Positions 1-37,351 of a stretch of DNA of 64,000 bases are shown in pieces. The position numbers and the translations under genes are program-made. The notes below the pieces were generated by a model. The model ran no database searches, was not told the origin of the DNA, and saw only the letters and a list, made by a program, of their open reading frames with translations. The first letter of the stretch is position 1. Each line of letters starts with the position of its first letter. This stretch comes from an uncultured Methanoregulaceae archaeon. GTDB taxonomy: Archaea; Halobacteriota; Methanomicrobia; Methanomicrobiales; Methanospirillaceae. Location: NCBI GenBank assembly GCA_963737635.1, contig CAVTTL010000001.1, positions 352,001 to 416,000 on the forward strand, written 5' to 3'.

Positions 1-26
1 CCAGTGATTTTGTCGGTGAATGCCAT
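1..26 (-). CDS. 5' end of next gene (MAFTDKIT...), possibly a second type II secretion F/TadC-like protein; runs off window
   Basis: ATG at 26..24 lies 1 nt after the stop of the 28..951 gene; the product is guessed from usual operon layout only. Confidence 0.35.
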
Positions 27-27
27 T

Positions 28-951
28 TCAAGACTCCGGGGTCATAGAACTTATCATGATAATGAACATTATCGTGCCAAAGGGAATCATGAGATAGATG
101 ATAACATAGAGAAACATCGGTTTTGAATCTCCCCCAAGGACCGACATGATCGACTGGAGAATGATCAAAAAGAGCGTTCCTGCCACCATTGCTGTTACAT
201 AGGATTCCGAGATTAACGCGAGCGTATCGAGGAACAGTTTCTGGGTCTGGCGGTTCTCTAGGGCGTACTGTTTGGCTTTAGTACGGAAATATTCCGTAAG
301 GTTACCCCCACTGGATATGCTGGCCATTGCGCCCTGTAAAAATTCCTTCATACGCAGGGAGGGGGTGCTCGAAGAGACTATCCTGAGTGCATCAATAAGA
401 TCACGTCCGAAAATATCGATTTCCCGGGCGATATAGCGGGCTTCCACCGAACTTTCCCCATAGATTGGGCTGTCGCCAAGAAGACGGAAAATCTCCGCAG
501 GTGTTATACCGGCAGTAGACATGGAGGTAATATAGTTGATGGCATAAGGAAGCGTAGCGTCGATATTCCGGCGCCGGTTTCCTGCCATGACTGAAGGATA
601 GATGATAAAAATGGCATACGTGATACCTCCAAACACTAGTAATGAGAAGATTACTGCAAAGATGGTCCCAAGAATGAGGCCGTAATGGGAAAGAAAGAGA
701 ACCGTTGCTGGTACTTCACCTTTGTACTTTACAAGGTTGGGGAGTTTTAGAACCCATGTAATCAGTCCCAGTCCTACAGCGGAGATGAGCCCAACGATGA
801 GAGAGCTGATAATTGCAGTAGAGATATAGACTTCAAAAGGGGTTTTTATTCGTGCGGAGAGGATATCATTCCTGAGCTGAGTGTACTGTTCCCGCTGAGC
901 CTTCATCCTCATGCCGAGAAGGTTGAAACAGAATCGTTCAAAACTATTCAT
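28..951 (-). CDS. Type II secretion system F family / TadC-FlaJ-like membrane platform protein
   Basis: 307 aa with several TM segments and a T2SSF-like core (IDATLPYAINYITSMSTAG...FGRDLIDAL...ISSGGNL); overlaps the ATPase stop. Confidence 0.88.
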   Translation of the reverse strand: MNSFERFCFNLLGMRMKAQREQYTQLRNDILSARIKTPFEVYISTAIISSLIVGLISAVGLGLITWVLKLPNLVKYKGEVPATVLFLSHYGLILGTIFAVIFSLLVFGGITYAIFIIYPSVMAGNRRRNIDATLPYAINYITSMSTAGITPAEIFRLLGDSPIYGESSVEARYIAREIDIFGRDLIDALRIVSSSTPSLRMKEFLQGAMASISSGGNLTEYFRTKAKQYALENRQTQKLFLDTLALISESYVTAMVAGTLFLIILQSIMSVLGGDSKPMFLYVIIYLMIPFGTIMFIIMISSMTPES

Positions 952-3363
952 ACAGGTCCTTCCTCACGCGCTCGATAACCACTTCGGGTTCCCGGTAGTA
1001 CGAGATAAGGACCTTAGCGACATCCTTATAATGCCGGATCTTTTTGATACGCATCCACTCCAGCACTTCCTGCCGCCGTTTGAGTTCTTCCCGCATTCGA
1101 TTTTCGTTCCAGCCCTTGGATTCCATAATATCTTCAAGAATGAAGGATTTCCCCGAGTAGCTGATTTCATCGGTTGCCGATCGCCACTTGAAAACCTCGT
1201 TGGTGATAAGCTCATTGGTCCGCGGGTCGATATCAAGAATCTCGACGATTTGTTTGTTCCGGCGAATCCGTTTTCCGCCCATCCTGGCCTGTACCTGAAT
1301 ACAAACGATATCAAGTGCTGACAGCATGTTCCGCGGCACGTCCATGGGCGGGTTTTCGATACGGTGCACGACACTCGATACCGAGTCCGCGTGGATCGTG
1401 GAATAGGTGATATGGCCGGTGCTCATTGCCTGGAAAAGCGTCTGGCATTCCTTGCCACGGACCTCGCCGACAATGATATATTCAGGCCGTTGACGCATGG
1501 CTGCGCGCAGGAGTTCGTACATATTGATCTCTCCCCGGCCCGCCGTATCAAACGAATCTCTCGTTACACTGGGGATCCAGTTGGGATGGGGAAGTTTTAC
1601 TTCGCGGGTATCTTCTAGGGTGACGATCTTAGCCATCGGGGGGATGAAGAGTGAGATCGCGTTTAACGATGTTGTCTTACCGGATGCTGTCCCGCCAGCA
1701 AAAATGGCAGATTTGCCGTTCTCGACTGCGAGCCAGATATATGCAACGGATAAGGGGGCAAACGTATGCCACTCGATGAGATCGGTCGGCGTAATCGGCT
1801 CGTCTTTGAACTTACGGATCGTAAAAGTGGAACCGTGTGCAGTTACTTCCTGGCCGAGTGTCATCTGGATACGGGAACCATCACCCATGGTTGCATCAAG
1901 AATCGGCTCAGCAATGGAGATGTACTTGCCGGCACGCTGGGCGAGTTTCGTAACAAACGAGTCAAGCTCTTCAGCATTATGATACGTCAGAGTGGTCTTC
2001 ATCGATTCATAGCTGGCATGGAAGGCAAAGATAGGAGTGTTGACGCCATCGCAGGAGATATCTTCGATAAATTTATCGTGCATGATCGCATCGATGAGAC
2101 CGTCTCCCAGGAAATCCTTGTGCATATTATAAAGGATCTTCTCACGCTGGACCGGGTTGAGTTTGATCCCATAATCCCCAAGGATGTCATCGACAGAACT
2201 TCTAAGCTGGCGCTTGGCCTCCTCTTTCGAGATATCCTTGGTATTAATATCAAGCATTTCAAAGAGACGTTCTTTTATCTCCTTTAACAGGTCTTTTTCC
2301 GGTTCGGAAAGTACGGGTTCAATGACCTGATAAGTATATTCATGGGTGGAATGATCGTAGATGACCCGGACATATGCATAGGGATCATTTACCGGATATA
2401 ATTCCATCTCTTCGACACCGGCTATTGTTTCAAAAGTGAGATCGACGAGGGGACCATGTAATTTGGGATCGTATTCCACAGTCACTTGGCGTATAGCACC
2501 GAAGAGCGTTGCAAACCTGGACTTCTTTACCGGCGTCTGGTCGGTCTTTTGATTCTCCAAGCTCAATTCAGATTCGAGATCTTTGAATCCCGCATTCGAA
2601 AATTCCCGTTTCCAGATATCGGCGAGTTCCGGAGGCAGGGTACCGGTGCTCTCAAACGCATTTACCCGTCCATGAAGGTTGATCTCTTCAATCTGAAATG
2701 TTGCACCTTTAGGCAGGATAAGTCCGGAATATTCGGATAGCTGGTCTGCTGATATGATTCGCTCGTCCGCTTCAGTCCGTTCAGTACGAGCCGTACTCTC
2801 CCCTTCTCCTGTAATTTTTGCTGCCTTCTTTTTCTTGAAAAATAAAGAGGTCTTATTTTCCCGGGGATCTTCTTCAATAATTTCGACTGGTGGTACAGGA
2901 GGATGTTCGATTGCCGGTAGAGCGGATTTTTTTCCTGATGGGAGGATTGGCGCAGCTGGAGTCTTCGGTTGTTCCATGATTTTTTCCGGTGCTGCACGGA
3001 TATCGTCTTCGCTTGTGCCGGGAGACGCAAGAGACATTTTGGCCGGGGGAGCATCTTCAAGCAGGTCATCCAGATCATCCGCCACATTATTCGGAGGGGG
3101 CGATTTCCCGGGAAGGGAGTCGTCGCGGGCATGAACCGGTTCCGCTCAGCCCCGGGCGTAGTTCCGGTATAACCTATATTGAGTTTTTGTATAAGCGCCG
3201 AGAAATCACCCATGCCTCCTTGATCATCTTCCTGCCCAGGCTTCTTTTCAGAGCGTGGTTCTGCCACTGGTCCGGTAGATTCTTTCTCCGGCGCCTGTAT
3301 GCCCCGGATTTTTTTAAGAAGAGTACTTACACTATCAAGAGTTTCATCATCGTGCGATTTCAA
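944..3363 (-). CDS. Type II/IV secretion (VirB11/FlaI-like) pilus assembly ATPase with long low-complexity N-terminus; probable 1-nt frameshift near 3145
   Basis: Walker A GGTASGKTT, Asp box LEDTRE, Walker B IIVGEVRG, His box STGH..STIHA. The 2662..3363 ORF N-terminus (MKSHDDETLDSVSTLLKK) has a G-rich SD and joins with one added base (about 806 aa). Without the join the ORF is 944..3085. Confidence 0.9.
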
Positions 3364-3494
3364 TCTGGAGTCCCCCCTGTCAGATGTTAACCGTTCCCCG
3401 GAATTTATATAAAAGATCGTTCTTATCTCACACTATATGTATTGTCTGCCATACTGAAGGAAAAAACTTCCCCAGTTCACGATCAACAGTCTTG

Positions 3495-4235
3495 TCAGGC
3501 TTCACTCTCCACTTCATTCTGGATGCTCCTGATCAGGACACGTATGAGACCGAGCTGGGCATCCGCACGCGTAATAATGCAGAGGAAGAGATCTCCGCAG
3601 GGAACGATAATAAATTTGTTCTCCTCAGTTTCGAGGATGAGCTGGCCGGGCTGCCCAAGGTTCATATCCTCAGATATTCTGGTCCCGGCCCGGAGGAAAT
3701 CCTCGGCTCGTGCTGCCACATGTTCAAAATCTGCTTCTCCAAGAGAAAGAACGGGAAATCCTTCATAGAACGCAGAAACGGCAACAACCCCCGGCTGACT
3801 CATAATCTTATTGAGGATAGATTCATCGACGAGAGGAGACGTGTGACCTGACGTCTCATGGCCTCTAGTAGTAAGGGAGAGATCATCCTGCACCTGCGGA
3901 GCAGTGCTGATAAAGAGGCCCCCTAGCGTGCACATAGTTAACGCCTCTTTGTAATCCTCCTGATTGTACGTTTTCAGGACGAAATTTTGCTGGTTTTGTC
4001 CGCCGTTGCTGGCAGGGCTGTTCATAACATAACTGACAGCAGAATTCCCCCGGTAAATGCCATCTTCCCCCTCGAAATATGCTGCAACCAGCTCACCGTC
4101 TCGCATAAGGATAAAACCCCGCCCCCTGCTGGTATCGATCTCGATTACTCCCTTAAACGCTTTGAGAGACTGGACGACGTCATCCTTACGGGGATCGATA
4201 ACGGCACCCGCTTGTCTTCCTGCCGGCAGTTTCAT
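3495..4235 (-). CDS. DUF2226-like N-terminal domain fused to a roadblock/LC7 domain
   Basis: N-term MKLPAG...FKGVIEI...RGFILMRDGELVAAYFE; C-term ILNKIMSQPGVVAVSAFYEG...LILETEENKFIIVP...LCIITRADAQLGLIR resembles MglB/roadblock. Confidence 0.7.
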   Translation of the reverse strand: MKLPAGRQAGAVIDPRKDDVVQSLKAFKGVIEIDTSRGRGFILMRDGELVAAYFEGEDGIYRGNSAVSYVMNSPASNGGQNQQNFVLKTYNQEDYKEALTMCTLGGLFISTAPQVQDDLSLTTRGHETSGHTSPLVDESILNKIMSQPGVVAVSAFYEGFPVLSLGEADFEHVAARAEDFLRAGTRISEDMNLGQPGQLILETEENKFIIVPCGDLFLCIITRADAQLGLIRVLIRSIQNEVESEA

Positions 4236-4259
4236 AAAATAGCCCGAAAAATAATAATC

Positions 4260-4607
4260 CTAGAGAGCTGCGACGATACGTTCCTTGTTTTTCTTTAATT
4301 CATAGCGGATCCTGCCGATATTTGCTGTTGAGTCAGCCACGAGTGCGATCAGTTCGTCCGCCGAAAGAGGGGCAAGGATTATAGGCCCTTTCTCAAGTTC
4401 AATAAGTAACTGGGAGAGCTCACCTTTCCCAAGGGTGATTCCCATCGCTTCAGATGTCCCAAGACCGGTTGAAGCCATAGCGCCGAGCGCCTCAATATCC
4501 AGCTTGCCGGAGACTGCGCTCTCGATCACAAAACCATCTCTTCCCACAACCACTGCTGCGGCAACCCCTTCAACCTTCAAAAATTCATCCAACAACGGCT
4601 TGAGCAT
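4260..4607 (-). CDS. Roadblock/LC7 (MglB-like) domain protein
   Basis: VEGVAAAVVVGRDGFVIES...LIELEKG...ANIGRIRYELKK is a typical roadblock pattern; GGTGA SD before the ATG at 4607. Confidence 0.9.
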   Translation of the reverse strand: MLKPLLDEFLKVEGVAAAVVVGRDGFVIESAVSGKLDIEALGAMASTGLGTSEAMGITLGKGELSQLLIELEKGPIILAPLSADELIALVADSTANIGRIRYELKKNKERIVAAL

Positions 4608-4867
4608 CTTTTCACCATTCAACAAATGTGAGTTTCTTGTTTCGTTCGTATTAATATGTTGGGATTATTTTCCGGGATATGCAGATATATTCTCCAAAAA
4701 TAAAAAAAAATGCCATTCAGTTCTGAACTGGACAACCAGCCCATAAAACCATACCAATTAATTATAATATAATTTAATAAATATTTATTTGTTATCTGCC
4801 ATAGATACAACGGGCCTAATGACCGTGAAAAGAAACTATATACTCGTATGTGATCATTAAAGAGATC

Positions 4868-5568
4868 ATGCAACTTCCCCGCGGGACGTTCCGCGAGATC
4901 CAAAAAAACAAGAAAACTAAAGACCTTCTTTCTGAGCTTGAGGGGGGCCGATTTTCCGGGATCTGCAGCATTTCGGGTCAGGATAGTATCTGTACACTTG
5001 TGATGAAATCGGGAAAATGCATTCTTGCGGAATACAATGCGCTTAAAGGAGATGCCGCAGTCGAGGAACTTTTCAATTCCCTCTCTGGCGGAAATGTGGA
5101 CGCCGCACTCTCAACGCTCGACGAACCTCAGATCCAGCTATCGCTGGAATTCAATAAAGCCGAGCGGATCGTAAAAACCACGCATATTCTTCCGGTCCAG
5201 AAACCTTCTCCAGTACCTCCCGTTCAACGGGAGATAGCAAAGGAAACCGGCCCGCTCCGGCAGCAAACCCGTCCTCGCCGAGCAAAGAGGCGGCAGCCCT
5301 GATAGGACGTTCACCGGATCTGACCCCCGGCCACCGTGCAGGCCCGAAAAATCCTTTCACCGCCCCCCCGTCGTCTATACGTGCAGAAAAAGCACCAATT
5401 TCCGAAGAGCCGGAATCTTCCGTAAAAGATGCCGAACCAACGGATCTGGAAAAAGATCTTGACTTACTTGATTCAATGAACCTTGACCAGGTAACGGATA
5501 AGATCAGGGATGAATGCAAAACGATGGTGAAACATCTTCGGCTCGACCACCTGATGGATAAGGACTAA
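4868..5568 (+). CDS. DUF2226-like protein with Pro-rich linker and helical C-terminus; frameshift around 5240-5260
   Basis: MQLPRGTF...FSGICSI...LVMKSGKCILAEY; continues in another frame to ...DLLDSMNLDQVTDKIRDECKTMVKHLRLDHLMDKD* (TAA 5566-5568); joins with one added base. Confidence 0.65.
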
Positions 5569-5600
5569 GACCCGGGGATTCAAAGGTATGTCGGTTATGT

Positions 5601-6155
5601 TTGGCATTGACAGGTACTGTTCTGCTCTTTGGTGTGGTAATCGCAGTAGTTATCTGCGTTGTAGTAGTCGTCGTAAGAAAAATCCGATCCCGGGCAAAGA
5701 GCGACTCCCGCAACATAAATATGAGTTCGTCGAGGACACCTCTCCATGTACGGAAAATCCCGGCATCCTCTTCGGATAGTTCTTCCGATCAGGATACGGT
5801 TTTTGCCTCTCCATCGCGCCAAAAGGAAGTCGACTCCCTTGGCGGCAAAGTCAATATTTCAGAGAGCCTCACTACTCTTGCGGAAAAATATTCTCTGGAT
5901 GAGATCACTCTTTCTACATCGGATGGCCTCTTGCTCGCATCTTCCCGGAAAACGCCTTCAGCTGATGCTATTGCGAGATATTCCGAGATGTATGCCGGCA
6001 ATTTGCGACCTTGGCCCCCGGGAATCATATTATTTGGCCTTGAGCATAAAGGATCGCTCCTGGTGGGAATTGCCAAAACAAAAGATTTGCTCGTTCAGGA
6101 TGCAGATCAGGATTTGATACGCGAGACAAAAGATATTTTAAACAGGTGGATATAA
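5601..6155 (+). CDS. Membrane-anchored protein with degenerate roadblock-like C-terminal domain
   Basis: N-terminal TM helix plus basic stop-transfer, Ser-rich linker, then SESLTTLAEKYSLDEITLSTSDGLLLASS. Confidence 0.6.
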   Translation: MALTGTVLLFGVVIAVVICVVVVVVRKIRSRAKSDSRNINMSSSRTPLHVRKIPASSSDSSSDQDTVFASPSRQKEVDSLGGKVNISESLTTLAEKYSLDEITLSTSDGLLLASSRKTPSADAIARYSEMYAGNLRPWPPGIILFGLEHKGSLLVGIAKTKDLLVQDADQDLIRETKDILNRWI

Positions 6156-6238
6156 CACGAATATGATACACATATAATAAAAATATTTCAGAATACGCAT
6201 ATTCCCGCTAGGATTATTATCGGGGCAACAGGTGTTTG

Positions 6239-7039
6239 ATGGTAAAAGTATACACGATCGCATCCGGAAAAGGAGGTACCGGTAAAACAACCGTTTCTGT
6301 TAATCTGGGAACGATGCTTGCAAAACTGGGGAAAGAGACCTACCTTATGGATGCTGACATTGGTATGGCAAATGTTGGGCTGATTCTGGGTCTGCAGGAC
6401 GCACCAGTAACCCTGCATGAGATTCTTGCCGGAAAAAACAGTATCGATGAAGGCATCTACCCGGGCCCTGCCGGGCTTAAGGTTATCCCGAGTGGTATCT
6501 CGCTCCAAGGCTTCCAGCAGGCGGATCCGGACAAGATTCGCGACGTTCTTTCTGAAATTGTGAAGAGATGTGAATTTCTGCTGATTGATGCACCTGCCGG
6601 TATAAGCAAGGATGGCGTCGTCCCGCTTGCCGTCGCAGACGAAGTTATTCTTGTGGTTAACCCCGAGTTGTCTTCGATCGTCGATGCACTAAAGACAAAA
6701 ATCCTGACAGAAGTTGTTGGAGGACATATCCTTGGTTCTATTATTAACCGGGTCGATCAGGAGAAAAGCGATGTCATTACCCAGAGGATGGAAAAAGTGC
6801 TCGGTGTAAAAGTCCTCGGAATTATCCCTGAGGATTCCAACGTGAGAAGAGCTGCAGCTGCACGTTCTCCCATTGTCGTGAGTTATCCGGATTCACCGGC
6901 ATCAAAGGCAATACAACGGATTGCGTCGGACCTTGTCGGGGTAGCTTACCGGGATGAAGGCACAGCCAAAACGTCTAAGGAAGGCTTTATCGAACGGTTC
7001 TCGAAGGCACTTTTTAGAAAGAAATCCGATATGAAATAA
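6239..7039 (+). CDS. minD: MinD/ParA family ATPase (archaeal MinD)
   Basis: Deviant Walker A KGGTGKTT, DADIGMAN, LIDAPAG, C-terminal amphipathic helix FIERFSKALF. Confidence 0.92.
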   Translation: MVKVYTIASGKGGTGKTTVSVNLGTMLAKLGKETYLMDADIGMANVGLILGLQDAPVTLHEILAGKNSIDEGIYPGPAGLKVIPSGISLQGFQQADPDKIRDVLSEIVKRCEFLLIDAPAGISKDGVVPLAVADEVILVVNPELSSIVDALKTKILTEVVGGHILGSIINRVDQEKSDVITQRMEKVLGVKVLGIIPEDSNVRRAAAARSPIVVSYPDSPASKAIQRIASDLVGVAYRDEGTAKTSKEGFIERFSKALFRKKSDMK

Positions 7040-7085
7040 CGTTTTTTGCCGTTTGTTTCTTATGTGGGTTTTCGGAAAAGAAATA

Positions 7086-7886
7086 TCAGATCTTTTCTGC
7101 CATTTTAATCTCAGTAAGGGTTTTTTCGCGAATCTGAACTGATACACCTATCATTTCGTTTCTGTCATCTTTCACCGGGCGCGCTGTGAGTGCGACGAAA
7201 CGTTTCTTGTTTGCAAGAGATACGAGAACCGTATTGAGATCATAACTTACGACGATTTTATCTTTAAGTACATCGAGCGCCGGGTCATTGATCCGTTCCC
7301 CTGTCTGCTTGTTTACGAGGATCAACACCTTTTTGAGGGGTTGTGCCAATGCATCTTTTTCCAGGACATCAAGAAGCCTGCAAGAATAAGGATTCAGAAA
7401 AATGATTCGCCCTTTGGTGTCGGTTATTAGCACCGCTTCGAGGGCACTCATAATCTTTTTTATATCCCAGAGAGCCGCCTTGTCAAAATACCGTTTGCGC
7501 ATGCTGTGATTATAAAGGGCAATTTCTATATTCGATACGATCTCATTTGAAGTAAAGGGTTTGAGAAGAAACCCGTACGGCTCAGCCGCTTTCGCACGCG
7601 TGAGTATAGCGTCATCACATTGGCCGGTCAGAAAAATAACCGGAATGCGAAATATAGAATAAATATATCGTGCAGCAGTGATGCCATCCAAGGCGCCGGC
7701 AAGACTGATGTCCATGAGAACGAGATCCGGCAGATATTCTGCTGCCTTCATGATTGCATCTTCACCCGTCATGGCTTTGCCGACAGTAGCATACCCTTTT
7801 TTCTCGAGAATCACACTAATGAGATTGGAGATTATCTCGTCATCTTCCACAATCAGGATCGTGATGGGTAACGGCATGGCATTCAC
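7086..7886 (-). CDS. Response regulator: REC + PAS, no DNA-binding output domain
   Basis: ILIVEDD, LVLMDISL, FLTG, LLKPF; PAS-like EAVLITDTKGRIIFLNP and RPVKDDRNEMIGV. Confidence 0.9.
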   Translation of the reverse strand: MNAMPLPITILIVEDDEIISNLISVILEKKGYATVGKAMTGEDAIMKAAEYLPDLVLMDISLAGALDGITAARYIYSIFRIPVIFLTGQCDDAILTRAKAAEPYGFLLKPFTSNEIVSNIEIALYNHSMRKRYFDKAALWDIKKIMSALEAVLITDTKGRIIFLNPYSCRLLDVLEKDALAQPLKKVLILVNKQTGERINDPALDVLKDKIVVSYDLNTVLVSLANKKRFVALTARPVKDDRNEMIGVSVQIREKTLTEIKMAEKI

Positions 7887-8070
7887 GGGAGTTTTTCGCT
7901 TAATAAAATACGAGACAAGAGTATTTAAATATAGATTTTCATTCTGTAAACAATATCTTTTTGCTCAATTATATATCCCCTAACTGAAAAAACTCTTAAT
8001 ATTATTCTGGCATAAGATTATTGAGAGAATTCTATAAATATAAAGGGGTGGGATGAGTGGCTCCCGTGTC

Positions 8071-9180
8071 TTATTCAGATTTGTTGGTAATAGTAAAGAC
8101 GCAAAACTCATCTCCTTTCGAACGGCATTTTATTTCGCGGGCCTGGACCTTGATCCCAAAAGCCCCCTCAATGATCCCAGCGAGAAGACCGGCAGTACAG
8201 TAGCAGACGTTCTTTCCGGTAGAGCCAAAAGCTTCGGATTCAACGGTATGTTCGAGCGTAATGGTTTTCTCCTTTTTGGCTTCGTTCCATTCACTCTTCA
8301 CCGGCAGGAACCAGCCCATCTGAGAATAAAAGGTAAGCGCCATATTTGAGAGCGTATTTGGATCGGTAATGCCCATTTTCTTATAGTGTTCGACGTTTTC
8401 CTTACCCATGTCCAGGTACGCCCGGTAGTTTACCCCGCCAGCCGGTAACTCGCCCATGGTCTTTTTAAGGGAGTTCATCATTGAGGTGAAAACAAATCTT
8501 GGCATTATGACTACGGGGTCATCGATCAACTTGATCGTCCCTTCTACCGGCCTGTGGTCAATAAACTCGGTGATGGCAGAGTCTCCCTTTACCACCGCTT
8601 GTGCCTTGAACTTCCAGCTGGGTTCTACCTGATCGGCAACAAATTCACAACAATCGTCACCGTTTGCCACGCACTTGGTTTCCAGGCAGTACCAGGATTT
8701 GCCGGTAACAGCAGTCAAGACACCTTCGATCCATCCCATATGAACCCCACAAACGGGCATTTTCCAGTCTTTAAGGATCTCTGATTCGAAGGTATGTTTT
8801 GTGCGCAGGATAATCCTTTTCTCACTCTTCTCAACGAGTTCAAATGGTGCACCCCACCCCTGTTGGTGCTGGAGTTTGAAAACCAGAAGAAGGAAGTCTG
8901 CAGGTGCCAGATCCATACCAAATTTTTTTAAGAGATTGTTCAGGCCGGTGGATCCCAGACCCACGGAACGGAACAGTTTGCGCACTGCCTTCACAGCCAA
9001 TTTCTTGTTGAGGTGGGACTCATACATCTCATAGATTGCCTTGATGAGGTAATTGGGGTTGCTTGCTGTTTTCACGCCGAATACAGAATAACTGCCGGAT
9101 ACCGTATCGAGCTCGATGTAGGGGGTGATGTCTTTCTCGCCTTTGATCAGCGCCTCGAAATCTTCTCGTCCAATCTTCAT
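8071..9180 (-). CDS. Tandem V4R (4-vinyl reductase) domain protein
   Basis: Two V4R motifs: CGVHMGWIEG...ETKCVANGDDCCEF and CYCTAGLLAGIIEG...EIKCRSKGDEFCVF, each preceded by a GWG/GWF-type segment. Confidence 0.85.
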   Translation of the reverse strand: MKIGREDFEALIKGEKDITPYIELDTVSGSYSVFGVKTASNPNYLIKAIYEMYESHLNKKLAVKAVRKLFRSVGLGSTGLNNLLKKFGMDLAPADFLLLVFKLQHQQGWGAPFELVEKSEKRIILRTKHTFESEILKDWKMPVCGVHMGWIEGVLTAVTGKSWYCLETKCVANGDDCCEFVADQVEPSWKFKAQAVVKGDSAITEFIDHRPVEGTIKLIDDPVVIMPRFVFTSMMNSLKKTMGELPAGGVNYRAYLDMGKENVEHYKKMGITDPNTLSNMALTFYSQMGWFLPVKSEWNEAKKEKTITLEHTVESEAFGSTGKNVCYCTAGLLAGIIEGAFGIKVQAREIKCRSKGDEFCVFTITNKSE

Positions 9181-9288
9181 AAGCGATAACTTCTGTTATT
9201 ATATAATTAAAGGATTTCGTATTGGTTTTTGAAGCAAATAACGTCGATAAGAGGTACCTACAAAAGCCAGAACTTTTTTGGCGAAATA

Positions 9289-9900
9289 TTAAAGATCCAG
9301 CATATGGGTCGGGTGAGATTCGTCGAATGTAATGGTAAAGTGCATCACGACCTGTGATCGATCCTGGAGAAGACAGGTATAATCTCCGTACATCACCCGG
9401 AAACTGACTTCGCCATTACCGGTCGTGATATCACTACCAACGACCTTACCGTCTTTCCTGAGTGAGACACGTATGCCGTTCTGCGGATTTTTCTCCCGGC
9501 AGACGGTCAGGCTGACTACCCCGATACCCTGGCTTTTTTTCCCGATCTCCGGTACTGAATGAGTGATATTTTTCCTGAGGTGCGATTTTTCAAAGATCCG
9601 GCATCCCATAACAAGAGCTTCAATTATCTCGGCTTTCACATCACAAAGGACATACTGCCTGCCCTCGCGGATATATGCGACCGCGTTGTCGCCAAAGAGG
9701 GGCCCTTCGGAATCTACGTAAAGCGCTCCCTCAGGTTCACCATTCAGAAATGCAAGATAATACTCACGATTCCCGTCTTTTGCCACAGCTATGGCATTTA
9801 TGCGCCGGGATGCGGCGGACATAAGTATTTCGCCGAGGGAAAACGTTCCCAAGTATTTTGATCCTTTCAGGATATTTTCGAGAATCTCCTGCAGATCCAT
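9289..9900 (-). CDS. DUF2226-like domain plus C-terminal beta-sandwich (carboxypeptidase regulatory-like) domain
   Basis: YYLAFLNGEPEGALY resembles the other DUF2226-like ORFs; C-term GIRVSL...SDITTGNGEVSFRVMYGDY is an Ig/transthyretin-like pattern. Confidence 0.55.
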   Translation of the reverse strand: MDLQEILENILKGSKYLGTFSLGEILMSAASRRINAIAVAKDGNREYYLAFLNGEPEGALYVDSEGPLFGDNAVAYIREGRQYVLCDVKAEIIEALVMGCRIFEKSHLRKNITHSVPEIGKKSQGIGVVSLTVCREKNPQNGIRVSLRKDGKVVGSDITTGNGEVSFRVMYGDYTCLLQDRSQVVMHFTITFDESHPTHMLDL

Positions 9901-10160
9901 GGAATTATCCTCTTATCACATTCCAGGGGGCGGGATTAGGTGAATTCTCCCCGGAATTAGTCTCAATTACTCTCAATCATATATTCACTGCCGGCGTATT
10001 ATATATTTGCAAAGGTATTTTCGAACGCCAAAACAGAGTGTTTTAACCCCCCGGATTTTCCGGAAGCGGGCAATATCCTGTCCGGCTATACTACTGCATA
10101 ATTATTGCGATGGGGAATCGCCATGAATAAGTTGTAGAAGATATAACGGTAAAACTGCTT

Positions 10161-11343
10161 ATGATATTTTATCCGACGGTGATTTCGGCCGTTGCCGTTC
10201 TTGTTACCCTTATCTATGCATCGTATCTGGATATCAAAGACCGGCGCGTTCCATTCAGGACATGGTACCCGATGCTCATTGTCGGGATCTCCGCGACTAT
10301 CGTACTCTTCTACCAGCAGACCGGAAATATGAGTTTGATCTTCGGATACGTTGCATTGGTAGCGAGTTTTCTGTACGCAGACTATCTCGACAACCATGAA
10401 CCCGGAACCCCCTTCCGGCTTCCTTACCTGGCTATAGTCCTTGCCCTTCCCGCTATCTCCTGGTTCGTTATACCGGCTATTTCCACGGGAAAACTGCCTG
10501 AGGCCCAGATTATACCGTGGTACGTGATGTTTGCCGGGCTGCTCGGGTACATGTCCTACCGCGAATATAAAAGACCACCGGAACGCAAACTTACCACAAA
10601 GCAAGCTAAAAAAGAGGCCAGGCGAGAATCGAACGTTGAAGAGGTGCTGAGCCGCTGGTACTTCGTCCTAGTTATTGTGATCCTCGCTGTTGCATCTTTC
10701 TACATGATTGGCGGCGGGATTTGGGTAGGTCTCCGGCATCTATATTGCCCTTGCTGCAGTATTTTGCGGCGTTTTTTATATCTTCGGGCAGATGCGCCTC
10801 TTTGGTGGGGCTGACGCGTGGGCTCTCATCTTTATCGCCTTCTGTGTACCGACATTTCCCCTCACTCCGCTTCTGGACACCCCGCCGTTAGGGTTTTTTT
10901 CGTTTTCGGTATTGATCAACGCTCTTATTCTCAATCTGGCGGCACCGGTAGGCATTTTTATTATAAACGTTGTAAAAAAGAACCGTGCACCGATCCAGTA
11001 CATGTTCTTTGGCTTCCCGGTTAGTGGGGAGAAGATTCAAGATTCGTGGGGTTTTGTGATGGAAGATTTTATCGAGAGAAACGGTAAAGTCGAACGAAAA
11101 TTTATCGGGTTCTGGGATTCCCTGCACCGGATGCGATCTGATGAAGGCAGGGTTTATACAAAAGACCTCCGGGAACGCCCTGAAGAGTTTGAGAAGGAAC
11201 TGGGAGTTTACAAAAAAGCAGAAAAAGTCTGGATTTCCTATGCAGTCCCCTTCATCCTCCCGATTACGGTAGGATTTATTTCAGCAATTATTCTCGGTGA
11301 TTTCCTCTTCGCAATCATAAAAATACTCAGCGGCGGTGCCTGA
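10161..11343 (+). CDS. A24 family prepilin/prearchaellin peptidase (FlaK/PibD-like); frameshift at about 10733
   Basis: Catalytic YLD and FGGADA motifs, C-terminal [14 protein letters not shown]; ORFs 10161..10814 and 10792..11343 join into 393 aa if one C is removed. Confidence 0.88.
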
Positions 11344-11716
11344 AGTGCTCTTCCTGAAATTTCCAGATGGCGGGCTGATCCCGGTGATTGTTCAGGAAAG
11401 AAAAACCGGGGAAGTCCTTATGATGGCGTATGCAAACGATGAGGCAGTCCGCCTCACCCAGACTACCGGATTTGCTCATTACTACAGCCGGAGCCGAAAA
11501 AAACTCTGGAAAAAAGGAGAAGAGAGCGGGCATTTCCAGAAGGTTGAGAAGATCCTTGTCGATTGCGATGAGGACTGCCTTATATACGAGGTCGAACAGA
11601 CCGGCGCTGCCTGCCATACCGGCCACCGAAGCTGTTTTTTCAGGACACTGGATGGTACAATCATAAGTGAGAAGGTTTTTGATCCGGAAAAAGTCTATGG
11701 AAGAACCGGGCACTAA
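11336..11716 (+). CDS. hisI: Phosphoribosyl-AMP cyclohydrolase
   Basis: [22 protein letters not shown] and ACHTG..SCF motifs. Confidence 0.97.
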
Positions 11717-35191: not shown

Positions 35192-35839
35192 TCAGTTCTC
35201 CTGCGAAGGCTCAAGTGCTTTTTCCAGCTGATCATTGATCTCCCGCAACCGGAGTTCGGCCCGGTAAATCTTATCTTCAAGATTCCGGATAGCGGCAATA
35301 TCCTCGCTGGACACTTCACGCCCGGCAACGTTCATTCCACTCGATGCCCGCAAGACCACAAGAAGATTCCGGTCTACCTCTGTGTTTTTGCGGAGCGCGG
35401 CATATTCATCGACTATTGCCATGTCGATGCCTTTGTTCTGTGCAGTAAGCTTTTCCAAGGACAATTCGTTCCTACGGGAAAATATCTGTTGGATTGAGTC
35501 CAGAAGCTGCGAGGGTTTCACCGGTTTTGATACGAAATCATCGATATTCATGCTGTGCTCCCGGGCTTCCACGGCGGTGATTTTCTTTGCAGAAAACATT
35601 AGTACGGGGATATCTTTTGTCGCTGGGTTTTCCTTGATCTTTTCCAGCGTCTCCCAGCCATCCATGGGCTCCATCATAATATCAAGAAGAATAAGATCAG
35701 GTTTGACGGTCTTGAGGATATTGAGGCATTCATTTCCTCCGTTAGCAGTGAGAGGAGTATGACCCTTACGTGAAAGAATAGCCACGAGTCCCTCAAGGAT
35801 AAATGGACTGTCGTCGACGATCAGAATAGTAGCGTCCAT
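35192..35839 (-). CDS. Response regulator (REC + helical C-terminal domain)
   Basis: ILIVDDS, LLDIMMEPMDGW, FVSKP. Confidence 0.9.
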   Translation of the reverse strand: MDATILIVDDSPFILEGLVAILSRKGHTPLTANGGNECLNILKTVKPDLILLDIMMEPMDGWETLEKIKENPATKDIPVLMFSAKKITAVEAREHSMNIDDFVSKPVKPSQLLDSIQQIFSRRNELSLEKLTAQNKGIDMAIVDEYAALRKNTEVDRNLLVVLRASSGMNVAGREVSSEDIAAIRNLEDKIYRAELRLREINDQLEKALEPSQEN

Positions 35840-35983: not shown

Positions 35984-36613
35984 TTATTGAATTTTCCCGG
36001 CAAGTTCCCCTTTAATCTGCTGGAGCCGGGTTTCCTGAAACCTGATATTTGTATCCATGTTTTTCAGCGCCCTTGAAATATCATCACTTATGCGAACTTT
36101 CGAATCATTGAAATTGTAGGTGGTTTCAAGGATCTTCATCAGGCGCTTGTTGATATCAATGCTCTTTGAGAGTAAGGCGTATTCGTTGACAATGTCAAAA
36201 CCAACTCCCGATTGCCGGGCCCGATCCATATCAGATCGAAGAGTCTGTCGCCGGCCGAGTACGTGCTCGATCGCATCATAAAGTTCCCTATGGGTGATAG
36301 GTTTGAGCACATAATCTTCGATAAAGATACCATACTCCTCAGCCTCAGCAGGAGTCAGCTGTTTTGCGGTGAGCATAAGTACCGGGACATCTTTTGTCGC
36401 CGGATTTTCCTTGATCTTTTCCAGCGTCTCCCAGCCATCCATTGGCTCCATCATAATATCAAGAAGAATAAGATCCGGAGTTACCGTTTTTAGGATTTCC
36501 AGACATTCTTCACCACCATGTGCAGCAACTGTCCGATATCCCCCTCGTTCGAGCATCGTGACAAATACATCGACAATGAAGGGACTGTCATCCACTACGA
36601 GAATTGTATACAT
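35984..36613 (-). CDS. Response regulator (REC + helical C-terminal domain), paralog of 35192..35839
   Basis: ILVVDDS, LLDIMMEPMDGW, YVLKP. Confidence 0.9.
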   Translation of the reverse strand: MYTILVVDDSPFIVDVFVTMLERGGYRTVAAHGGEECLEILKTVTPDLILLDIMMEPMDGWETLEKIKENPATKDVPVLMLTAKQLTPAEAEEYGIFIEDYVLKPITHRELYDAIEHVLGRRQTLRSDMDRARQSGVGFDIVNEYALLSKSIDINKRLMKILETTYNFNDSKVRISDDISRALKNMDTNIRFQETRLQQIKGELAGKIQ

Positions 36614-36973
36614 TTACATCACCCTCCCTATCTCCGCAGCTACGATACTGATTCGAGAACAAGCTTCTTCCTGCTTTGCATCACTTTTGAGAAGTGCGGC
36701 GACAAGAAAATGTTCCCCGGCTCCCGTAACAAGGATGGATGAATCCGCCGAAAGGATCGATACTGTCGCAAGTGATTTCATTCCGATAAGAGTTCCCGCG
36801 GATTCCGCGGATGCAAGAATAGTTGCAGCCAGTGCACCAAACCATGGTTCATTTAGTTCACGGTCAAAATATTTTCCGGCAATTATGCCATCACGTGAGA
36901 CAATGGCGCATGCAGTCACCCCATCGATTACCCGTATTTTTTCTATAAATGCTGCAATTTTATCCTTTAACAT
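36614..36973 (-). CDS. Roadblock/LC7 domain protein
   Basis: IDGVTACAIVSRDGIIAG...GALAATILASAE; stop abuts the regulator ATG. Confidence 0.88.
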   Translation of the reverse strand: MLKDKIAAFIEKIRVIDGVTACAIVSRDGIIAGKYFDRELNEPWFGALAATILASAESAGTLIGMKSLATVSILSADSSILVTGAGEHFLVAALLKSDAKQEEACSRISIVAAEIGRVM

Positions 36974-37351
36974 GCCCAATGCTCCTATGGTGAACTACCC
37001 GCTGTAATTCATAATATCAGATGACAACATATATACATATCTTTTTTTTTTCTGACTCATTTCTTCAATTACATAGAAGTTACCAGGTGCCCGAATATCC
37101 TGAAAGATTTGTTTTATTTTTGTCCGAAAACGGAGAGAGGCTGAGCCTTCAAGTAAGATAGCGCGTACCACAATTTACATTTATCCGGGTTGATAAAGGG
37201 ATATTCGGTTATAGAAAACATGGCAAAAACTGTACTTGCCCGATAGGATAAATAAATTGCATTTCGTTGCAAGAAAGCTCAAGGAATGGGCAATATATAT
37301 GATCGGGGACCGATTGAATACCCGAGATATCTGAAAGCCGGGAAGATGAAT

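Follow-up and report, generated by a model that had tools for sequence, protein, structure and literature searches.

Why should the genes of an archaeal pilus assembly machine be interleaved with genes for Roadblock proteins, MinD and putative sensors, and do these genes work together? We have addressed this question for a locus of about 11 kb at the left end of a 64,000-nucleotide stretch of DNA from an uncultured Methanoregulaceae archaeon (GenBank assembly GCA_963737635.1, contig CAVTTL010000001.1, positions 352,001 to 416,000; G000:C1:352001-416000 in our numbering). This stretch is the window in what follows, and coordinates refer to it unless a contig is named. The nearest relatives of the locus are in records titled Methanoregula or Methanoregulaceae. 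An initial annotation, made from the letters of the window, had described a single module, inferred to localize or switch on a surface filament, in which MinD or the secretion ATPase may be the target of the Roadblock proteins. The locus instead joins two units, a PilB3-type pilus core and a roadblock module, and the Roadblock genes keep company with an MglA-like GTPase encoded far away in the same genome. The explanation that we prefer, tentatively and without giving it quite an even chance, is that the pilus machine is controlled by an MglA/MglB-like switch together with PATAN adaptors and MinD.

The pilus-core unit consists of an archaeal A24 prepilin peptidase (10161..11343, + strand), the protein p203 (9289..9900, −), a secretion ATPase of PilB3 type that bears a long N-terminal extension (944..3363, −) and two TadC-like genes. 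One of the latter encodes a TadC/FlaJ-like membrane platform protein of 307 residues (28..951, −), and the other, TadC/TadB-like, reaches into the window with its 5' end (1..26, −) and lies mostly to the left of it (whole gene G000:C1:350974-352026, 350 residues). The roadblock unit consists of a stand-alone Roadblock/LC7 protein of 115 residues from its conserved start (4260..4607, −; the open reading frame extends to 4625), a 246-residue fusion of a PATAN-like N-terminal domain with a Roadblock/LC7 domain (3495..4235, −; the fusion in what follows), the p150 family protein (4868..5568, +), a single-pass membrane protein with a predicted cytoplasmic Roadblock-fold domain (TM-Roadblock; 5601..6155, +) and an archaeal MinD with a C-terminal amphipathic helix (6236..7039, +). 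Between MinD and p203 are genes for a REC-PAS protein without an output domain (7086..7886, −) and for a double V4R protein of 369 residues (8071..9180, −).

Is this arrangement conserved? A scan of species-representative genomes returned 102 relatives of the fusion, from which 80 Methanoregulaceae loci were kept. The stand-alone Roadblock gene adjoins the fusion gene in 80/80 of them, and 57 span the distance from the ATPase to A24. Over these 57 loci, Roadblock and fusion, MinD and p203 are each present in 57/57, p150 and the V4R gene in 56/57, TM-Roadblock in 44/57 and REC-PAS in 30/57, an arrangement conserved far beyond chance. Synteny at the level of the family nevertheless proves little by itself, because the unrelated gene hisI is kept as often (56/57) as the module genes.

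A wider comparison was made in a class-wide sample of 201 genomes, in which the fusion is present in 135 (69/105 in f1, 31/32 in f2, 0/24 in f3, 6/7 in f4, 11/11 in f5 and 17/21 in f6). The roadblock genes are linked to the pilus core in f1, to which the 57 spanning loci belong, in f4, in f5 and in part of f6. The module itself takes three layouts: divergent in f1, circularly permuted in f2 and f6, and drawn out as a single array in f4 and f5. The f4/f5 array runs hydrogenase, Roadblock, fusion, p150, MinD, p203, ATPase, TadC, TadB, with gaps of at most ~125 nucleotides and several overlapping coding regions, and in the f5 locus L119 everything from MvhA through TadC lies on one strand. In a phylum sample reaching beyond the class, the fusion was found in 68/401 genomes in all; outside the class it occurs in 15/15 genomes of f14 and as a partial match in 1/3 of f20. 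None of the remaining families sampled yielded it, among them large non-methanomicrobial ones with 0/52, 0/64 and 0/54. All five f14 loci (5/5) carry the hydrogenase small and large subunits, Roadblock, fusion, a p150-like gene, an unknown gene, MinD and an NYN gene, with overlapping start and stop codons, as seen for example in L144. A conserved set of roadblock, PATAN-like and MinD genes is thus found beside pilus genes in the 80 Methanoregulaceae loci and in three further families, but the claim of one module is not supported, the locus being made up of two separable units.

On what, then, do the Roadblock proteins act? The initial annotation noted that the window encodes neither an MglA-like GTPase nor a pilin. 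The window indeed has no MglA gene, but the genome contains both: nine Pilin_N matches outside the locus, to which we return below, and an MglA-like Ras-family GTPase of 173 residues at G000:C1:1194315-1194836, 0.84 Mb from the locus. This protein scores 25.5 bits with Ras and 46.1 bits with small_GTP, and it has a G1 motif of the form GAFGAGKS/T, a G3 motif, GTPGQ, that is invariant in 20/20 aligned rows, and NKCD in most rows. The G3 form, with Thr instead of Asp, is presumably a hallmark of MglA. Among the 201 genomes, fusion and GTPase occur together in 114, the fusion only in 21, the GTPase only in three and neither in 63. In G102, which counts among the three GTPase-only genomes, MinD lies 1.3 kb from the start of a contig, so that a fusion gene would fall off the assembly. 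For fusion and p203 the corresponding counts are 133, 2, 34 and 32: the fusion is nearly never found without p203 (133/135), and p203 itself is present in 167/201 genomes. Contrary to the initial annotation, which tied the Roadblocks to MinD and the pilus genes, the distant GTPase co-occurs with the fusion more specifically than p203 does, an outcome that the annotation had itself named as speaking against it, and MinD persists in genomes without roadblocks. An orthologue group of MinD is present in 40/41 genomes of the genus; many genomes have two close paralogues.

The losses within the genus point the same way. A MinD gene tree with 41 rows, built from one gene by a quick method, can stand in only roughly for the species tree; on it, the joint absence of fusion and GTPase needs at least three changes, counted on well-supported branches, and up to four. 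In one clade the GTPase has been lost in 5/5 members and the fusion in 3/5; G038 and G123 lack the GTPase, and their match to the fusion covers the Roadblock part only (query 137-242). The V4R gene is absent in 5/5 genomes without fusion and GTPase and present in 5/5 others, including four that lack the GTPase alone, although its loss requires a deletion separate from that of the roadblock genes. The proposed tie between V4R and the roadblocks is thereby borne out (0/5 versus 5/5 genomes). Genomes without roadblocks and GTPase retain A24, p203, MinD, the ATPase, TadC, TadB and sometimes REC-PAS, and one reduced genome retains a p150 remnant of 75 residues. REC-PAS is a variable member, kept in the roadblock-less genomes G058 and G104; with its presence in only 30 of the spanning loci, we no longer count it as part of the module. 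We read these patterns to mean that the Roadblock pair behaves as the partner of the trans-encoded MglA-like GTPase and that V4R belongs with the pair, whereas MinD and the pilus core are independent of the Roadblock pair and V4R, yet their preferred neighbours in Methanomicrobiales.

Structure prediction is consistent with such a partnership. A predicted complex of the stand-alone Roadblock, the Roadblock domain of the fusion, the GTPase and GTP gave an ipSAE score of 0.58 (runs 0.58, 0.59 and 0.56), with the best control at 0.00, a partner predicted local distance difference test (pLDDT) score of at least 81 and agreement of the runs in at least 86% of contacts. The verdict of the tool is 'weak support'. 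The mark is reached by 58/80 solved complexes and 2/110 mismatches, but in the range up to 0.60 it is passed by only 7/80 solved complexes and by both passing mismatches, and the pass may reflect only a likeness to solved MglA–MglB structures.

These arguments lean on domain assignments, which were made by hmmscan against Pfam and NCBIfam-type profiles. The Pfam cut-offs are 23 bits for Robl_LC7 (PF03259), 25 bits for DUF4388/PatA_N (PF14332) and 31 bits for V4R (PF02830). With 55.1 bits for the stand-alone protein and 29.5 bits for the fusion, where the match is in the C-terminal half, both are members of the Roadblock/LC7 family; the stand-alone protein is 68-94% identical across families, and the fusion, with 443 homologues, matches Roadblock chains in the Protein Data Bank (PDB) at E 1.4e-7. 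The N-terminal domains of the fusion and of p150 both open with M-[KQ]-L-P-x-G and are homologous to each other (hhalign 92.4%, E 5.3e-7). In p150, this PATAN-like domain starts with MQLPRG and is followed by a proline-rich linker and a conserved C-terminal helix. DUF4388 scores 15.6 bits for the fusion and 12.5 bits for p150, both below the cut-off of 25 bits. It is nevertheless the only recurrent family among relatives, matching 9/23 (best E 9.3e-4) and 11/50 (best E 2.2e-5), the 50 being drawn from the best 150 of 446 p150 representatives at E<=0.001. This weak but consistent signal suggests, at the level of sequence and below the cut-off, that the domain shared by fusion and p150 is PATAN/DUF4388-like.

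Most of the domain inventory of the initial annotation (type IV pilus ATPase, TadC, Roadblock, MinD, REC-PAS, double V4R and A24) was recovered with profiles. The exception is DUF2226 (PF09987), which we discard: none of the three candidates gave a match at E<=10, no protein of the whole genome matched at E<=1 where control genomes did, and among the p150 relatives it turned up in 1/23 at E 0.24 and in 0/50 at E<=0.01.

The membrane-anchored roadblock proposed earlier fares differently at the two levels. By sequence, TM-Roadblock (5601-6155) matches no Roadblock profile, of Pfam or otherwise, and nothing in the PDB; its alignment with Roadblock reaches only an hhalign E of 0.19, and its Atlas score is only 0.78-0.82. 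Its AlphaFold2 (AF2) model (pLDDT 83.6) has a transmembrane helix at residues 5-37, a linker and an α-β-β-α-β-β-α domain. The best VIA match of the model is 3kye (Z 10.1, root-mean-square deviation 3.0, 94 aligned), the MglB structure 6h5b scores Z 9.5, and the top rows of a Foldseek search are nearly all Roadblock, LAMTOR or MglB chains, with E from 3.2e-3. TM-Roadblock is thus a putative Roadblock by predicted fold only.

MinD is assigned with ease: it scores 313.9 bits with minD_arch (TIGR01969; cut-off 201.75), has the deviant Walker A motif SGKGGTGKT at residues 10-18 and reaches its hydrophobic-moment maximum, 2.06, at FIERFSKALFR, a helix predicted to target the membrane. Subfamily score, Walker A motif and amphipathic helix together place it among archaeal MinD proteins. 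REC-PAS matches Response_reg at 76.3 bits and PAS_9 at 30.7 bits. The V4R protein reaches 88.5 bits over two stretches, well above the cut-off, and has a putative sensing function; a double V4R gene was not found in the loci of other families and is confined to Methanoregulaceae loci.

Two further relatives of these proteins deserve mention. The genome-wide scan found a third Pfam-positive Roadblock, at 36614-36979 (−, 30.2 bits), directly upstream of genes for two REC-MetOD2 response regulators (35984-36613 and 35192-35839, −), and this Roadblock is thus paired with response regulators instead of a GTPase. A second, divergent full-length paralogue of the fusion (E ~1e-30) is found at G024:C1:1236600-1237325 and at similar places in f2, away from hydrogenase and pilus genes; its fetched context (L116) is without module genes.

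How might the parts work together? In the reading that we prefer, the machine to be controlled would be a type IV pilus assembly core of PilB3 type (euryarchaeal clade 2) whose pilins are encoded elsewhere. The stand-alone Roadblock and the fusion would act as an MglB-like dimer on the trans-encoded MglA-like GTPase, and the PATAN-like domains of the fusion and p150, perhaps also p203, would dock this switch onto the ATPase or the platform, as bacterial PATAN does. MinD, with p150 and TM-Roadblock, would set the membrane site at which the switch acts, and in Methanoregulaceae the double-V4R protein would provide a ligand or redox input. What the analysis shows is domains and folds, gene order and patterns of joint presence and loss; we infer every physical contact, the direction of control and the pilus as its output. 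Bacteria offer a precedent for the mechanism: in Synechocystis, PATAN by itself is reported to suffice for binding to the N-terminal parts of PilB1 and PilC, and genes for MglA/MglB homologues frequently lie close to PATAN genes (bioRxiv 10.1101/2021.06.11.447907), while MglA and SofG sort PilB and PilT (PMC4316618). Our locus places two or three PATAN-like domains next to an ATPase that has a long N-terminal extension.

Several observations weigh against this reading. The PATAN membership of its supposed adaptors remains under the Pfam cut-off. The GTPase gene has no conserved neighbours in seven loci, and 21 genomes have the fusion but no GTPase match at E<=1e-20; moreover, relatedness among the genomes inflates all co-occurrence counts. 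The pilus core does not need the module, as shown by its retention in roadblock-less genomes. The pilus core of f2 and of part of f6 is compact (A24 | p203-ATPase-TadC-TadB) and includes neither roadblock nor MinD genes; in G024 it lies 1 Mb from the fusion. In f14, none of the five loci (5/5) has a pilus ATPase within 10 kb, the nearest ATPase homologues being >0.9 Mb away, and p203 gave one weak match among five genomes and was not found in 4/5. Finally, the roadblock genes have another neighbour. An orthologue of the large subunit of an Mvh-type hydrogenase is present in 63/201 genomes (0/105 in f1), and a comparison of coordinates places the fusion 0.4-2.3 kb downstream of it on the same strand in 60/63; of the other three, two have a large-subunit match cut at a contig end and one has no listed fusion position. 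The link to the hydrogenase is older and tighter than the link to the pilus, and the reading leaves it unexplained.

This hydrogenase linkage underlies the best of the alternatives, which we regard as unlikely but take seriously: that the locus encodes a positioning module centred on MinD, which would serve not the pilus but general polarity or an Mvh/Hdr hydrogenase complex, with whose genes it would be co-transcribed in most lineages. The PATAN-like protein, the Roadblock-fold protein and MinD would then make up a cassette widespread in archaea, the first two being MinE- or MinC-like partners of MinD, and the adjacency to pilus genes an accident of gene order in Methanomicrobiales. In the window, p150, TM-Roadblock and MinD follow one another on one strand, and the same set is found in a one-direction array with the hydrogenase in f2, f6 (L123) and f14 (L144). 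The f2/f6 array (L123) runs p150, TM-Roadblock, MinD, ferredoxin, an unknown gene, hydrogenase small and large subunits, Roadblock and fusion, with a hydrogenase maturation protease in front. In L144, HdrB/C-like genes lie upstream on the opposite strand, and MinD is followed by an NYN-LOTUS gene; the NYN gene after MinD in f14, the hydrogenase large subunit adjoining in the 60 genomes and the 34 genomes that have the pilus core without the module all speak for this alternative. The module outlives the hydrogenase in the whole family f1, however, where no Mvh large subunit is found, and the hydrogenase is therefore no obligatory cargo. Over the 201 genomes, fusion and large subunit occur together in 62, the fusion only in 73, the large subunit only in one and neither in 65. 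MinD, in turn, persists where p150, both Roadblocks and the fusion have been lost, which means that these are not obligatory MinD partners; in the roadblock-less genomes it remains between p203 and the ATPase; and the fusion tracks the MglA-like GTPase, not MinD.

Some features of the hydrogenase genes stand apart from this comparison. In other families, an Mvh/Vhu-like [NiFe] operon (ferredoxin, an unknown gene of 175-187 residues, small subunit, large subunit) is followed by Roadblock and fusion (L123:3430-10354, L144:6163-14553, L119:4175-14772). The enzyme is nearest to the F420-non-reducing VhuA/VhuG, below the cut-off. An Mvh-type orthologue was not found in the source genome, where the best match is 25-27% identical. 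Searches of the literature found no description of a Roadblock–hydrogenase operon, although the supplementary tables of PMC4858521 and PMC4316618 may list the genes.

Could both neighbours be accommodated at once? One may imagine that the roadblock/PATAN/MinD/MglA set forms a polarity switch coupled to hydrogen or redox state. Its genes would originally have been transcribed together with those of an Mvh-type hydrogenase, so that switch and enzyme were made at the same time; in Methanomicrobiales the switch would have been rewired to the PilB3 pilus, and in Methanoregulaceae, after loss of the hydrogenase genes, the cysteine-bearing double-V4R protein would have replaced the hydrogenase input. 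We consider this scenario improbable as it stands; if it were true, adhesive pili would be built or placed according to hydrogen supply, for example towards a syntrophic partner.

We give just as little credence to the initial annotation taken literally, according to which there is no GTPase, the Roadblocks act on MinD or the secretion ATPase in response to a V4R/PAS cue, and all eleven genes form one module. The absence of a GTPase gene from the locus and the co-loss of V4R with the roadblocks fit this model, as does the general prediction that Roadblock-family proteins are NTPase regulators (Koonin and Aravind 2000, as cited in PMC4316618). It is contradicted by the MglA-like GTPase of the genome and the presence of the fusion in 114/117 GTPase-positive genomes, by a REC-PAS gene that outlives the roadblocks and is missing from nearly half of the spanning loci (30/57 have it), by the confinement of V4R to one family and by the separation of pilus core and roadblock module in other families. 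Least probable of all is that there is no functional unit and that the gene order was simply inherited within one methanogen order. The retention of hisI in 56/57 loci, and in other families too, would fit this, as would the fact that no more than two related lineages were compared. Against it, the set has persisted through three different rearrangements, its coding regions overlap, and the unlinked GTPase, V4R and the roadblock block have been lost jointly at least three times.

The preferred switch would act on a pilus core whose own assignment is as follows. The ATPase matches T2SSE at 112.6 bits and carries an N-terminal extension of 230-330 residues; PilB3_C (26.4 bits) and PilB3_N (21.4 bits) are both under their cut-off of 27. 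The platform protein at 28-951 matches T2SSF at 55.3 bits, with an ArlJ-like score (93.8 bits) far under the cut-off, and the second TadC-like gene, which adjoins it in 66/80 loci, matches T2SSF at 65.5 bits. The peptidase scores 82.3 bits with Arc_PepC_II and 26.0 bits with Peptidase_A24 (cut-off 26.5). A VirB11/PilB-like ATPase, two TadC-like genes, an A24 peptidase and pilins in trans place the system in euryarchaeal clade 2 (PilB3 type), a clade assignment made without a tree. No pilin was found in or beside the locus in a search that left out a 103-residue open reading frame in the gap left of the second TadC-like gene; the Class_IIIsignal profile has no match in the genome, and the nine Pilin_N matches are all outside the locus. 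The gap measures ~530 bp and is followed by cobQ.

The remaining member of the core, p203, combines an α/β N-terminal domain with a transthyretin-like β-sandwich, as judged from its AF2 model (pLDDT 82) and from VIA, in which residues 127-203 match 3e8v at Z 12.6. In other loci its gene is directly upstream of the ATPase gene, and in L119 it overlaps the ATPase start. Two fold searches were dominated by the C-terminal β-sandwich and yielded no fold match for the N-terminal domain. This domain has weak hhalign matches to PATAN-like profiles (E 0.07, 0.006 and 0.019) and an Atlas score of 0.83 to a cluster with DUF2226 in 47% of its members; it is possibly PATAN/DUF2226-like. Longer forms of p203 also occur: in some Methanoregula loci, p203 is ~324 residues long with a duplicated N-terminal domain, and open frames of ~490-510 residues are found in genera without the fusion (g12, g5). 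Coordinates of longer p203 genes are L072:5081-6031, L053:4625-5599, L061:5171-6148 and G114:C1:1343956-1344549.

To the right of the locus, hisI (PRA-CH; 11336-11716) overlaps the A24 gene by 8 bases. It adjoins the A24 gene in every family examined, including those where the pilus core stands alone, which makes for a puzzlingly constant association between a housekeeping gene and the peptidase gene.

In the window, three of the genes described here (ATPase, p150 and A24) are each broken into two frames, and their coordinates above are those of the whole genes (as assembled, the ATPase open reading frame is 944-3085 and that of p150 4850-5302; the extent of p150 is from alignment and frames). 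In relatives, the ATPase is a single open reading frame of 800-860 residues, the N-terminus of which matches window 3363-3115 in another frame, p150 proteins have 210-260 residues, and A24 is a single open reading frame in L119 and L126. We compared the window with contigs of at least 99% identity from four runs of four studies and found five single-base indels within 8.5 kb (window 2900-11400). The run contigs have an extra G behind 3143 (ATPase; 2/2 covering runs, X1 and X2) and behind 5253 (p150; 4/4) and lack one base at 5613 (4/4), at 10056 (4/4) and at 10727 (A24; 3/3 covering runs, X1, X2 and X4). Because the run contigs carry one-base indels at those sites, the split frames are assembly errors and the genes are intact in the population; the same indels led us to reject the reading of the three genes as pseudogenes. 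The best-matching run could be the source sample itself, and the other studies are concordant with it. The true start of the ATPase is 3363, and the start of TM-Roadblock is uncertain owing to the indel at 5613. Four substitutions, at 10301, 10577, 10944 and 11126, are common to up to four runs. A genome in four contigs at 90% completeness fits an assembly with such errors. It probably carries many more frame-breaking errors, and split open reading frames elsewhere in it should therefore not be read as pseudogenes.

One further small-GTPase domain was noticed in the genome. In a 402-residue protein at G000:C1:487982-489190 (L150:3982-5190, −), a small-GTPase domain (41.7 bits with Ras and, under the cut-off, 32.3 bits with small_GTP) is fused to an N-terminal part that resembles KaiC (31 bits). 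A 235-residue open reading frame without an NCBIfam match overlaps the start of this protein.

The locus bears on the function of the methanogen-specific MglA GTPases, on the partners of archaeal MinD and on the regulation of archaeal adhesion pili. It supplies a set of candidate proteins that can be tested against each other, namely the Roadblock pair, the two PATAN-like proteins, TM-Roadblock, MinD, V4R and the distant GTPase, and the congeneric genomes that lack the switch and keep the pilus core amount to a natural 'knock-out' set. Unexpectedly, in four families and a second lineage the Roadblock genes almost invariably come straight after an Mvh-type hydrogenase, which may link cell-surface behaviour to energy metabolism in methanogens that scavenge hydrogen.

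How does the locus compare with known systems? No paper that describes the module, couples it to archaeal MglA or assigns that GTPase a function was found in searches of the literature, although the supplementary tables of PMC4858521 and PMC4316618 may list the genes. Group 4 MglA is nearly exclusive to methanogenic Euryarchaeota and has no conserved neighbours, according to Wuichet and Sogaard-Andersen (2014, PMC4316618). For archaeal type IV pilus loci, Makarova, Koonin and Albers (2016, PMC4858521) describe Roadblock arCOG02603 as 'often encoded in a variety of T4P loci', name MinD arCOG00589 as the regulator most frequently associated with them and state that PilB3-type loci are without pilins. 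The euryarchaeal clade 2 loci described there resemble ours in having an ATPase with two TadC-like genes, pilins in trans, MinD and Roadblock. In the consulted text of that survey, whose supplementary tables may list the loci, Roadblock receives one sentence, and neither the module nor the PATAN fusion nor a link to GTPase or hydrogenase is mentioned. The MinD4 and MinD2 proteins of Haloferax volcanii, in the accounts consulted, are likewise archaeal MinD proteins with a membrane-targeting C-terminus that are implicated in placing motility machinery, but their cargo is archaella and chemosensory arrays, not an adhesion-type pilus, and these accounts report no Roadblock or PATAN partners. There is also a likeness to the bacterial MglA/MglB and PATAN systems of Myxococcus xanthus, Thermus and Synechocystis, with which the locus has in common Roadblock-fold proteins, including a fusion to a PATAN-like domain, and type IV pilus genes alongside, and its genome an MglA-like GTPase. 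Compared with these, our locus shows no PilT-like retraction ATPase or RomR, its PATAN match is below the cut-off and its GTPase is unlinked, whereas an archaeal MinD and TM-Roadblock have been added and the ancestral link is to a hydrogenase operon.

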